Part shown: piece by piece, positions 24,001-27,000 of the stretch
Layout of the letters: every line of letters starts with the position of its first letter
Numbering within the stretch: position 1 is the stretch's first letter
Origin: a virus
Taxonomy: Duplodnaviria; Heunggongvirae; Uroviricota; Caudoviricetes
Strand: one strand, 5' to 3'
Length of the DNA stretch: 39,804 nt
Virus record (IMG/VR): IMGVR_UViG_2734482775_000002
Span: 1 to 39,804 of that record
Program-made: the position numbers

Positions 24001-27000
24001 CAGGATGCTCTGACTCGCAATTCATCCAGCAGTTTATCATTTCCCATAATGTCACTTACCCTCATCGGTAAAAAAATTGCCTTTCGACCATTACGATACA
24101 TCATTGATTTTGGGGTTTCAGGGAAGTAATCCATTTCGACTATAACTGACAGGTCATCACGACGTATGACTGCGTATTTGCTACTAAATAGTTTCTTTAT
24201 TTTTTCCACGATGCCCCCAGGTTTATAAGTGCAAAAGGTTATATCCACATAGAGACAAAAATATTAATCTGAAAAATATTTATTTCACGCCGTATATTTG
24301 ATTGTTTAATGTGCAGGTACAATGACTTTTATTTTTTGTTGTGTATATAATCTAATATATGGTTATTTTTCACCCTACGCATTCAGCACGCAACAAAAAA
24401 CCCGCCGAAGCGGGTTAAGTGCGGGTGCGTTGAGGATGCCTGACACATCAGAGGTGGCGAGGGATTCCTCCCTCGCCTGGTCTCTTACTCCTCAGGTTCG
24501 TAAGCTGTGAAGACAGCGACCTCCGTCTGGCCGGTTCGGATTCGTACCTCGCAGAGGTCTTTCCTCGTTACCAGTGCCGTCACTATGACGGTTAAACAGA
24601 TGACGATCAGGGCGACTAACATCGCCTTTTGCTGCTTCATAGCCTGCTTCTCCTTGACCTTTCGGTCCGTAAGAGGCAATCTATATGTGACGAGCATATA
24701 GGGGCCTCACTTCGATTTATAGTCGGGTGGGGCTTTTATCTATCTGCCGTTGGTGTTCATGCCCGAGGCAGATAGCCTCAAGCACCCGCTGCAATTCTAC
24801 TTAACTCTCCTTTTCCCGCAAACCGTTTTTATCCCAGCGGCAAATCGAATACACCACCAGCGCCACCGCCAGTACAATTCCTACCGTTGTGAATGCTTCA
24901 GGCCAGGTCACCGTAAAACATCCTCCACGCCTATCAACCCGTTCCGCTCCAGATAGCCCATCGCCTTATCTGGCAATTTGCAGTCCGGTTTCGATTTCTT
25001 CAGTTGGCTAACCAGTTGTTTAATCAGCATTGTTAATTCCCGTACCTGAACGTCCCCTTTGGTATCCTCATTGGTGAGGATACCATCGTCTTTCCCCTGA
25101 AGCATAGCCGCGCGGCAGGCATTCCAGCCTCTTACCTCTGCAATAGCGGCAACCGCATCAACCGCGTACATGCTAAGAGGATTAGGCATTGGTTTTTCTT
25201 CCGGTACTACTGGCGCTGGAGGGGCGGCGTAAATGCCTTCTATCACTAAATGTTTGCGCTCAAAATCATCTGGCTCTCGATGATATACGTAACTCCAGTC
25301 ACCAAGGTTATCATTGCGCCTGCAACGGAAACCTATCGGCTCTGCTTCCAGCGACGCCAGAGCAATTCGTGCCAGTTCTTCCGCTTCTTCTGCTGGCAGT
25401 ACAACGTTGCTACCCGGTCCGTATGTTTCGCGCCACTGCTTGATTGTCAGCAGTCGCTCTTTGGTAATAGTGGTCATGCCGTAGCCCCTTCTTGATATTT
25501 TTCAAACCAGAACACAACCGGGTCAGATTTCATTTCAACCAATCCCATACGAACCAGCGCTTTGCCTTTCCCGGACGCAAGGAATTCACGACGACCATCA
25601 CTGATAATTCGCCGATAATCTTCCAGGCTACTGCAATGCTTGTGCAGATTGCATGGGTGGCATGCCGGAACCATGTTGGATATATCGTCACGTTCCTGGT
25701 GAAGCATATTTCCAGCAAAACGAATGACCGGTTTTACATGGTCTGCATGCCACTTTTCGCCAAGTTCGCAGCCGCAATAAGCGCAGCGACCGCCGAACTT
25801 CATGCGCAGTTCTGTACGTTGTTTTTTCGTCAGTGCCATATCAGCTTTCCTTATATGGATTAATTTTATTGTGCAGTGTGTTGAACGACGCCCATACCAC
25901 GTCGTTATACAATTCAATAACTGGCTCAATTATTTTCCCGATTCCCCATACCAGAATTAACGGGGATATCGGTATCATCAACACGATAAACAGAATGAGA
26001 AACAGAAATTCTGTTGTTCTACTCTTTCGTGGATATTTTTTTCTGAATAATGTAGGCACATCACTCTCCTTTGTTGCTTCTCAAAATTTTATGCCCTGGC
26101 GCAAAAGCACGCGTTTTGTCGACGCTTATTCGCCACCCATCTTTACGTGCCTCTTTTGCACAGCCAGCCCATGACGTACCGATATACTCACCAAAATCTG
26201 GCGACTGATATTTGCCATCCGTACACTGGCGGCAATCACAATAGAGATGCATGGTGTAACTTGCGGCAATACTCATTCAGCCTCCTTTGCGGATTTTCCC
26301 GCTTAACCTGTTCCTAGAAACGCACTGCTTTAATCAATCCTTCTGGTGTCAGCGGCACAGGCGGGGCAGTGAATAACGCCTGAATTTCATAGTTCGGCCT
26401 GTCGTTGCAATCCTCTTTTGTCGGTACATATTTCCAGTCACCAGCCCACGGCTTCCCCTGAAAGTCTGTAACGTCTTTTTTCACGTAGCGATATCGCCAT
26501 GCAACTGGTTTTGCCTGCCCTGCCGTTTCATGCCCTTCCTGATAATTAATCTCGCTCATTCATCGCCCCACTCATCACAATATGCTTCGACCGGAGTTTT
26601 TCCTGCTTCATAATCATCACGCCATGCTTCAGCATCAGCAGCACTGCCACCACGTAACTCTGCATAGTCCATTAACAATTCATGCCATTCTTCAAAACTG
26701 ACGTTGTATTTAGTTGAACCAAAATCAGCCATTTTGTTCTTCCTCCTCGTCTTTTATTTCGTGATATGAGTAATTGCAGTGGTTAAAGAAAATTTCTTTT
26801 GCTTCGTCATGAATTTCATCAGGTGTTGCGTCATCGTCCACTTCGAATACATCCTCAAAATCCCCACCAGCTATTCCCGTTTCAATAATTATTTTGAACT
26901 TTCGCATTTCACTACCGCCCTTTCGGGCGGCCTCCTGATGTTCTGAGGGTGCAGAAATCCCTCCGGTTAAGGATTAAATTTTATTTACAACACTAAATTT

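Follow-up and report, generated by a model that had tools for sequence, protein, structure and literature searches.

Whether the small hok gene in the early region of this prophage stands alone or belongs to a complete toxin-antitoxin cassette, and what such a cassette would do for the prophage, are the questions raised by this locus. Herein, we analysed the whole stretch of 39,804 nucleotides of IMG/VR record IMGVR_UViG_2734482775_000002 (the window), in which the first-pass annotation had placed a hok/sok-type type I module. The claim held: the toxin, mok, a predicted Sok, tac/fbi and ucb/dcb were all identified, and the locus shares synteny with K-12 Qin hokD and homology with the experimentally validated pair hokW-sokW. 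We read 24393-24822 on the minus strand, of which about 395 nt are RNA-coding, as an intact hok/mok/sok cassette of the hokD/hokW/hokC subgroup, with a probability of roughly 0.85. It is an ordinary, complete version of the well-known hok/sok module, the biology of which is already known.

The toxin gene and its setting

The cassette belongs to an E. coli lambdoid prophage and sits in its rightward early (cro-to-Q) block. The hok gene is part of a nin-like block; an HNH endonuclease gene and genes without assigned function precede it, and it is followed by a rem-like gene, one of the NinB-like/DUF1367 type, YbcO and a Q-like gene. The gene order matches hokD-rem-ydfU-ydfT(Q) of Qin. A place between the nin genes and Q had been proposed, of which only the second half stands: hok is upstream of the Q-like gene, but it lies within the nin-like block. 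The same prophage carries a second type I pair, ralR/RalA. The coding features of the cassette are as follows.

24485-24640, minus strand: hok toxin coding sequence, 51 aa, Pfam HOK_GEF 82.3 bits
24650-24653, minus strand: hok Shine-Dalgarno (SD) GGAG, 9 nt before the hok ATG, read from the sequence
24485-24697, minus strand: mok reading frame, 70 aa, with its ATG at 24697, in frame with hok
24705-24708, minus strand: mok SD GAGG, 7 nt before the mok ATG, read from the sequence

The 51-aa product, noticed at the outset as a Hok-family toxin, matched Pfam HOK_GEF (PF01848) along the whole profile (positions 1-42 of 42) at E=1.7e-23, with 82.3 bits where the cutoff is 22, and PHROG 'MokW-like host killing' (E=1.9e-32), confirming the assignment. 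Identical residues numbered 46/51 with HokW, 42/51 with HokC and 29/51 with R1 Hok, and the comparison with E. coli hokD gave 50/51 identical residues together with the same downstream synteny. HokD, one residue different from the window Hok, is a previously characterised toxic homologue that was used as a control (10.1101/2025.08.07.668861). RefSeq names the near-identical copies hokD, and at the matching loci examined only the 51-aa hokD coding sequence is annotated. Membership in two NCBIfam families was dropped because both scores fell below the curated cutoffs, namely 49.1 bits against 73 for NF007279 (Hok family toxin, subfamily) and 39.8 bits against 89 for NF007290 (HokA, equivalog). 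These models are tuned to other branches of the family; the window toxin is not HokA, nor is it claimed by the plasmid-Hok-type subfamily model.

The in-frame upstream extension of hok was likewise recovered, as 19 codons beginning at the ATG at 24697. We rejected the idea that an in-frame mok is an oddity, since K-12 mokC and hokC are annotated with a common stop and a 57-nt offset, and many homologues carry the same 19-codon extension. In alignment A3, the mok SD GAGG was invariant and AAGGAG at the hok SD was conserved; the R1 mok SD is also GAGG (PMC9841398).

The cassette is widespread, with matches in 4717 of 5426 complete E. coli genomes and up to 9 matching places per genome; the best match among these genomes was 99.1% identical over the cassette and 99.6% over the chromosomal flank. 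The hok reading frame was open in all 31 near-identical IMG/VR copies and both Sok promoter hexamers were unchanged in them, and divergence among these copies climbed sharply just outside 24393-24789.

The mok-hok mRNA and the predicted Sok RNA

The leader and the 3' region contain the following elements, with pairings taken from the predicted folds of the full-length mRNA and of an mRNA truncated at its 3' end.

24794-24822, minus strand: predicted hok/mok promoter, -35 TTTGCG (24817-24822), 17-nt spacer, -10 TAGAAT (24794-24799)
24393-24787, minus strand: predicted full-length mok-hok mRNA, ~395 nt, 5' end from Rfam model position 1 and R1 homology, 3' end from the terminator
24776-24787, minus strand: tac element GGGUGCUUGAGG, the 5' end of the mRNA; partner is fbi in the full-length fold, ucb in the truncated one
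24740-24775, minus strand: 5' stem-loop, an inverted repeat, present in both folds
24727-24735, minus strand: ucb (anti-SD) AAGCCCCAC; partner is the mok SD in the full-length fold, tac in the truncated one
24673-24708, minus strand: Sok-target hairpin of the truncated mRNA, closed by mok SD/dcb (24673-24677) in the truncated fold
24456-24477, minus strand: 3' UTR stem-loop, a perfect 9-bp inverted repeat
24423-24435, minus strand: fbi element CCUCAACGCACCC, pairs with tac
24393-24416, minus strand: intrinsic terminator of the hok mRNA, 7-bp stem (5 GC pairs), loop of 4, T-run

The hok promoter, the Sok promoter and the Sok terminator were placed by homology and spacing. For the hok/mok promoter, which a consensus promoter scan did not detect, we infer the position from sequence reading and alignment: the predicted -10 TAGAAT is 6 nt before the predicted +1 at 24787, and its place is taken by TATAAT in K-12 hokC and by TATGAT in an R1-type locus (alignment A2). 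The numbering from the mRNA 5' end (G4/C5/T6 and A70/G71/C72) follows PMC9841398 and was checked on one locus of our set (L004). The terminator dedicated to hok, already noticed in the first-pass annotation, was confirmed as a stem at 24399-24416 on the minus strand with a T-run to 24393, and was the sole terminator-like site in a scan of 24200-25000. Rfam model RF01794 ('sok') matched 24638-24787 over its full length (1-157) with 103.9 bits against a gathering score of 59. The alignment is on the hok sense strand, from tac/+1 to the hok AUG, and the model describes the leader that contains the Sok target; the match was thus rejected as an antisense RNA and used only as evidence for the leader. 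An inverted repeat upstream of hok, seen at first where mok/Sok elements would be expected, is present (20-nt arms at 24729-24748 and 24767-24786, 75% complementary), but it is neither Sok nor mok: it is the mRNA 5' end, comprising tac and the 5' stem-loop, pairing with ucb.

The full-length mRNA folded with z=-7.5 against shuffles. Its unconstrained fold was the closed form, with the tac/fbi clamp (12 bp with one bulge, -19.8 kcal/mol, present in the minimum-energy fold), ucb paired with the mok SD, and the hok SD paired with the dcb region. When 55 nt were removed from the 3' end, the minimum-energy fold became the open form with tac/ucb and mok SD/dcb, in which the mok AUG sits at the top of the stem of the Sok-target hairpin, with the loop CUCGUCA at 24688-24694; the hok SD was paired in this fold as well. 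The same closed-to-open switch has been described for the R1 hok mRNA (PMC9841398), and by analogy with R1 in that study the 3' UTR stem-loop is likely to be the protective 3' hairpin of the processed mRNA. The conservation of this stem-loop is compatible with processing from the 3' end.

We compared 38 loci spanning Escherichia, Kluyvera, Photorhabdus, Pantoea and Citrobacter. Paired cells made up 93.5% of the total, versus 44-54% when the partners were slid, and compensatory changes occurred at nine pairs, indicating selection on RNA structure across genera. The nine pairs of the 5' stem-loop were paired in 95.9% of cells, with three compensatory pairs, and the 3' UTR stem-loop in 88.8%, also with three; tac pair 4 covaried, being UA in 25 loci and CG in 11. 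The tac/ucb and mok SD/dcb helices were 99.6% and 100% paired, respectively, and gave no covariation signal in the 38 loci, their columns being invariant. Because Escherichia loci have a one-base bulge in tac/fbi and Photorhabdus loci have none, fixed-column counting was dropped for pairs 7-12 and a bulge-aware duplex table was used. On this count, the duplexes (-17 to -24 kcal/mol, in 16 tac/fbi sequence combinations) are maintained via compensatory substitutions, with compensatory fbi/tac variants in Photorhabdus, Kluyvera and Citrobacter loci.

On the opposite strand, two further elements were predicted.

24654-24682, plus strand: predicted Sok promoter, -35 TTGACC (24654-24659), 17-nt spacer, -10 CAATCT (24677-24682)
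~24689-24745, plus strand: predicted Sok antisense RNA, ~55-57 nt, from K-12 sokC coordinate transfer, promoter spacing and fold

Coordinate transfer from the annotated K-12 sokC placed Sok at 24689-24743, starting 7 nt past the -10. The predicted RNA has a single-stranded 5' tail, a GC-rich hairpin and a U-rich tail, and folds into a SokC-like shape (-22.1 kcal/mol, z=-4.2); its 5' tail complements the mok SD and AUG as well as the target loop that comes after the mok start codon. Sok is thus predicted to be a cis-encoded antisense RNA against the mok initiation region, with its promoter inside the mok/hok-SD region. The predicted -10 is a poor match to the consensus, and simple consensus scans scored both the Sok promoter and the Sok terminator below threshold. 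The promoter architecture is shared with K-12 sokC (TTGACC-17-CACTCT), sokW (TTGCCT-17-TAACCT) and the R1 type, and the -10 of sokW is experimentally required (PMC8621323). The exact 45-nt Sok core was found in 49 viral contigs. An antisense partner of ~60-70 nt had been expected around 24690-24790; the predicted Sok begins where this would have it, but is shorter and, ending at ~24745, does not reach 24790.

From these elements we infer the following course, from the transcription of the two RNAs through processing to toxicity and its trigger. A weak constitutive promoter would give the ~395-nt mok-hok mRNA, which would be inert at full length, with its 5' tac paired to the 3' fbi and the mok ribosome-binding site masked by ucb. 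Slow 3' trimming would remove fbi, after which tac would turn to ucb as its partner and the dcb-closed hairpin would display the mok SD and AUG. Translation of mok, in frame with hok, would then open the hok ribosome-binding site, and Hok would act as a 51-aa inner-membrane peptide that collapses the membrane potential. Sok, an unstable RNA of ~55 nt from the plus strand (~24689-24745), would bind the target loop, mok AUG and mok SD with its 5' tail, block mok translation and mark the duplex for RNase III; Hok would therefore appear only once Sok synthesis stops. After prophage induction, Sok would be lost, possibly because early rightward transcription runs head-on into its promoter, and Hok would help host lysis and phage release, by analogy with hokW-sokW.

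Relation to known hok loci

Every defining hok/sok feature testable in silico is supported in the cassette, namely the toxin, mok, the Sok promoter and hairpin, tac/fbi and ucb/dcb. R1 hok/sok (parB) has the same elements in the same order (tac, 5' hairpin, ucb, mok SD, target hairpin, dcb, hok SD, hok, 3' stem-loop, fbi) and the same predicted closed-to-open refolding. It shares ~50% of nucleotides and 29/51 residues with the window, and it is plasmid-borne, with post-segregational killing demonstrated. The K-12 hokC/mokC/sokC (gef) locus has the 19-codon in-frame mok arrangement, a Sok promoter of the form TTGACC-17-CAnTCT and the Sok fold seen in the window, and its leader from tac to the hok ATG is of similar length (143 versus 146 nt). 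Identity to the window was 72% over the mRNA, 64% over the Sok region and 42/51 residues in the toxin. Unlike the window cassette, hokC is chromosomal and outside a prophage, and in K-12 the insertion of IS186 has displaced the 3' end of hokC together with fbi; its antisense partner sokC is annotated as an ncRNA.

K-12 hokD (relF), in the cryptic prophage Qin, is the same locus with another leader: the hok SD, the coding sequence, the 3' stem-loop, fbi and the terminator are nearly identical to those of the window and the downstream genes (rem-like, DUF1367/ydfU-like, Q-like) are the same. Its homology to the window begins only at the hok SD, ~12 nt ahead of the hok ATG, and relB-relE occupy the place of the leader (alignment A1). 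Qin hokD thus has no tac, 5' hairpin, ucb, mok start or Sok, whereas the leader in the window is complete. The relBE-hokD (relBEF) arrangement, with hok directly after relE and no mok/Sok leader, was not found in the window, which lacks relBE.

The prophage locus hokW-sokW (Sakai prophage Sp5 and 933W-type Stx phages) is a type I toxin-antitoxin pair by experiment (Takada et al. 2021, PMC8621323). Its tac and 5' hairpin are 100% identical to those of the window and its coding sequence 94% (46/51 aa); fbi and a small upstream ORF are common to both, and the published primers (PMC8621323) match the window exactly at the tac/5' hairpin and fbi regions. In contrast, the Sok/target segment is just 48% identical, with an extra ~20-nt insert in hokW, so that the behaviour of hokW-sokW is not simply transferable to the window. 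The HokW C-terminus reads VDYESEK versus TAYEPEE in the window Hok, the aligned hokW 3' end lacks the terminal GC hairpin of the window, and hokW lies near att in Sp5-type phages whereas the window hok lies between replication genes and Q.

Role in the prophage

After mitomycin C treatment of hokW-sokW lysogens, Sok is lost and HokW is made in a RecA-dependent manner (PMC8621323), and the only direct experiments on any prophage homologue, those on this locus, indicate that it aids lysis and phage release once the prophage is induced (PMC8621323). By analogy, the window cassette is likely to assist the induced prophage in lysing the host and releasing phage. It may additionally serve prophage retention and phage exclusion; prophage stabilisation or abortive infection, as first proposed, is a guess.

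Addiction, in which prophage loss would remove the short-lived Sok and leave the stable hok mRNA to be translated and kill the cell, is what hok/sok is established to do on plasmid R1 (PMC8621323 and PMC9841398), and the stable clamped mRNA architecture that delayed killing requires is fully present. As the main role it nevertheless appears unlikely: deletion of hokW-sokW had no growth effect in uninduced lysogens but did affect lysis and phage release (PMC8621323), the chromosomal hok loci tested showed no post-segregational killing (cited in 10.1101/2025.08.07.668861), and spontaneous precise loss of an uninduced prophage is presumably rare, so that selection for this role would be weak. Defence genes are common in prophages, and ralR/RalA in the same prophage also fits a main role in abortive infection or exclusion, in which host transcription shut-off by an invader would deplete Sok and Hok would kill early. 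R1 hok/sok cut T4 plating by 42% and plaque size by ~85% (as cited in PMC8621323), but this effect required a high-copy plasmid and came from R1 rather than from hokD- or hokW-type loci. Together with the reported lack of hok enrichment beside defence systems (10.1101/2025.08.07.668861), this makes such a main role quite improbable.

The cassette could also look intact and yet have no physiological activity, having hitch-hiked along as a relic in the manner of the chromosomal hok loci of K-12; Hok would then never be released in nature, and the prophage would gain nothing from it. Intact sequence does not guarantee activity, since intact chromosomal hokA, hokB and hokC reportedly gave no post-segregational killing or rifampicin response (cited in 10.1101/2025.08.07.668861); the Sok -10 and the hok -35 are weak, and such loci do decay, as K-12 Qin, with only the hok ORF and 3' UTR retained, illustrates. 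We nonetheless regard silence as very unlikely, given the open hok ORF and unchanged Sok promoter hexamers in all 31 near-identical viral copies, the sharp rise in divergence just outside 24393-24789 and the compensatory changes across genera, to which are added the about four-fold enrichment of hok in prophages (10.1101/2025.08.07.668861) and the activity of hokW-sokW (PMC8621323).

A further, tentative proposal that may well fail is that the cassette is modular, sharing the toxin gene, tac, 5' hairpin and fbi with hokW while the Sok/target segment is swapped so as to insulate co-resident copies, and that induction, Q timing and membrane damage are coupled. The uneven identity to hokW (94% in the toxin gene, 100% at the 5' end, 48% in the Sok/target segment) bears on the first part, and the Sok/target version of the window also occurs in Photorhabdus and Citrobacter loci; if true, swapping would prevent cross-reaction among several hok/sok copies in one genome. 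For the second part, cassette and cro-to-Q early block have the same orientation. If this part is true, induction would send early rightward transcription against the weak Sok promoter, which would free Hok, and the hok terminator would double as a nin-type barrier ahead of Q.

The importance of the cassette is small beyond correct annotation, in which its strand, boundaries and internal elements are now fixed and testable coordinates are supplied for an unannotated Sok RNA. It also shows the form of the truncated K-12 hokD before relBE replaced the leader. Modest leads come from the swapped Sok/target segment and from the location ahead of Q; they concern cross-talk among co-resident hok/sok loci and the trigger of Hok at induction, which was left open for hokW-sokW.

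Element map of the hok/mok/sok cassette

The cassette (24393-24822, minus strand) is a fully canonical and very common hok/mok/sok module of a kind already known, and what is gained here is a precise element map with predicted coordinates for the antisense RNA, Sok. The first-pass annotation had described a 51-aa Hok-family toxin with a dedicated terminator, an in-frame upstream extension and an upstream inverted repeat, and each of them is present in the window:

24485-24640, minus strand: hok ORF, 51 aa (reading frame)
24697, minus strand: in-frame upstream ATG (mok), 19 codons before hok (reading frame)
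24399-24416, minus strand: terminator, a stem followed by a T-run (terminator scan)
24729-24748 / 24767-24786: inverted repeat (repeat search)
24456-24477: perfect 9-bp inverted repeat (repeat search)

The 51-aa ORF matched HOK_GEF (Pfam) with a score of 82.3 bits (cutoff 22), as well as the PHROG family 'MokW-like host killing', and the stem at 24399-24416 was the sole terminator-like site in a scan of 24200-25000. The in-frame mok is not an oddity: the chromosomal mokC and hokC of K-12 likewise have a common stop codon and a 57-nt offset, and the 19-codon extension also occurs in many hok homologues.

A hydrophobic 36-aa ORF (MTWPEAFTTVGIVLAVALVVYSICRWDKNGLREKES; 24801-24911, minus strand), whose GTG start overlaps the stop of a 189-aa ORF upstream, has its 3' end within the hok promoter. 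It had no above-threshold family in Pfam, PHROG or NCBIfam. A counterpart with an ATG start lies before hokW in the Sakai prophage Sp5 (primer YO-432, PMC8621323).

Leader folding and the predicted Sok RNA

The Rfam 'sok' model matched 24638-24787 with 103.9 bits (gathering score 59). The match runs along the sense strand of hok, from GGGUGCUUGAGG to the hok AUG, indicating that the model detects the hok leader with the Sok target; this placement rules out the match as the antisense RNA itself.

The predicted full-length mRNA (24787 to 24393, 395 nt) and a 3'-shortened RNA were both folded without constraints. In the full-length fold (z=-7.5 vs shuffles), the tac element (first 12 nt) paired with CCUCAACGCACCC at 24423-24435 (fbi), and the mok SD (GAGG, 24705-24708) paired with a C-rich upstream box (ucb, 24727-24735). 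When the 3' 55 nt were removed, the minimum-energy fold differed: ucb became the partner of tac, and GCCUC at 24673-24677 (dcb) that of the mok SD, in a hairpin with a 7-nt loop and the mok AUG atop the stem. The same closed-to-open switch has been described for the hok mRNA of plasmid R1 (PMC9841398).

Hok loci were gathered from GTDB species-representative genomes. The alignment took in the full-length leaders and 3' UTRs of 38 loci, among them those of Escherichia, Kluyvera, Photorhabdus, Pantoea and Citrobacter. The closed form had standard pairs in 93.5% of cells, compared with 44-54% when the 3' partners were slid, and compensatory changes at nine pairs. Pair 4 of tac/fbi was C-G in 11 loci and U-A in 25; the 16 tac/fbi combinations in a bulge-aware table gave duplexes of -17 to -24 kcal/mol, which were kept despite changes such as GAGG/CCUC to GAGA/UCUC or GAAG/CUUC. 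The open-form helices were 99.6-100% paired across the 38 loci, with invariant columns and no covariation evidence, as expected of segments obliged to pair with two partners.

The Tyr47 codon and the next (UAC GAA, 24497-24502, minus strand) were nucleotide-invariant in 38/38 loci, and the predicted full-length fold leaves them unpaired. UACG is a reported motif of TadA A-to-I editing, with Tyr-to-Cys recoding in hok mRNAs (10.1101/2025.08.07.668861); such editing of Tyr47 would supply a partner for Cys30.

Alignment-based transfer from K-12 sokC, an annotated ncRNA, gave the coordinates of Sok, and a promoter of matching architecture is seen just before it:

24689-24743, plus strand: predicted Sok RNA
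24654-24659 and 24677-24682, plus strand: predicted Sok promoter, TTGACC and CAATCT with a 17-nt spacer (sequence/architecture)

G24689 lies seven nt past the predicted -10, and the promoter architecture is shared with sokC, sokW and R1-type promoters. Because CAATCT fits the -10 consensus poorly and the promoter scan made no call there, we only infer from sequence that Sok would be transcribed from the 24689(+) region. The predicted 57-nt Sok folds (-22.1 kcal/mol, z=-4.2) into a single-stranded 5' tail, a GC-rich hairpin and a U-rich tail, the same shape as SokC. Bases 1-6 of this RNA form the complement of the target loop, and those after them span the mok AUG and SD. An exact match to the 45-nt Sok core was found in 49 IMG/VR contigs. 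Both promoter hexamers were unchanged among 31 near-identical copies of the locus, in all of which hok was open. Divergence among these copies rises abruptly right beyond 24393-24789, marking the cassette as a discrete unit.

Relatives of the locus and the surrounding prophage

RefSeq labels DNA near-identical to this locus as hokD, with matches in 4717 of 5426 complete E. coli genomes; phage records label it 'gef: phage maintenance protein', MokW or HokD. The hokD of the K-12 Qin prophage is alignable from the hok SD through the terminator, but everything upstream of the SD is missing and relB-relE occupy that place. The Qin genes downstream are syntenic with the rem-like, DUF1367, YbcO and Q-like genes of the window. 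Together these indicate that the window carries the complete form of a locus truncated in K-12. Hok copies without the tac motif and leader were also seen in E. coli and Kluyvera contigs (L009, L008, L061 and L033). The upstream sequence of L009, L033 and L061 is common with the relE side of Qin, whereas that of L008 differs; the leaderless relBE-hokD arrangement is thus not restricted to K-12.

The hokW-sokW locus of Sp5 is a demonstrated type I pair (PMC8621323). Its tac and 5' hairpin are 100% identical to the window and its CDS 94%, and the published primers (PMC8621323) match the window exactly at tac/5' hairpin and fbi. In contrast, its Sok/target segment is merely 48% identical, with an indel of ~20 nt, and hokW lies near att whereas the hok of the window lies upstream of Q.

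In the alignment of 38 loci, the Sok hairpin/target segment (columns 60-100; window 24689-24730) has at least three unrelated versions, namely the long hokW type, the hokC type and the window type. As two Photorhabdus loci and one Citrobacter locus (L045, L046, L056) also have the window type, beside toxins only 66-71% identical, the sequences suggest that the antitoxin-specificity region is exchanged as a cassette, a small lead.

Other features of the prophage were:

37250-37459, plus strand: RalR-like ORF
37458-37636, minus strand: RalA antitoxin sRNA (Rfam RF02694, 212 bits; gathering score 170)
22267-22465, minus strand: isrK (75.5 bits), C4 antisense RNA (66.7) and a1/b1 targets (50.5) (Rfam)
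31927-31978, plus strand: DicF sRNA (Rfam RF00039, 53.8 bits vs 48)
37994-39070: tyrosine integrase

RalR/RalA (37250-37636) is a second type I pair. The isrK/C4 matches lie just downstream of the Q-like gene (22485-23039), and a 203-aa ORF (21603-22214, minus strand) comes after them. This layout resembles an antisense cassette of the P1 immI or IsrK type, sited between Q and the lysis genes. DicF, also present in Qin, is on the leftward side of the immunity region. The integrase adjoins yebY and the chromosomal RyeA/SraC and SdsR/RyeB sRNA pair (39198-39342). This flank shares 99.6% identity with E. coli RM8082, and its junction with the integrase is present in 228 of 5426 complete genomes, indicating a prophage integrated beside sdsR/yebY.

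Mechanism and favoured role

With its elements in place, we adopted the canonical mechanism, in which a clamped, stable mRNA would be produced and stay untranslated. Trimming at the 3' end would open it, mok translation would then enable that of hok, and short-lived Sok would block the mok ribosome-binding site. Once Sok synthesis stops, Hok would be made and damage the inner membrane.

Prophage addiction and phage exclusion are both possible roles, although neither is supported for this hok subgroup. By analogy with Sp5, we favour a contribution to lysis and phage release once the prophage is induced, because the sole direct data on a prophage homologue point there: after mitomycin C, Sok vanishes and HokW is produced RecA-dependently, and deletion of hokW-sokW halved phage release (PMC8621323). 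The hok terminator separates the early genes from Q. The cassette has the same orientation as the cro-like, replication and Q-like genes, so that rightward transcription of the early genes in an induced prophage would meet the Sok promoter head-on, a plausible candidate trigger of Sok loss.
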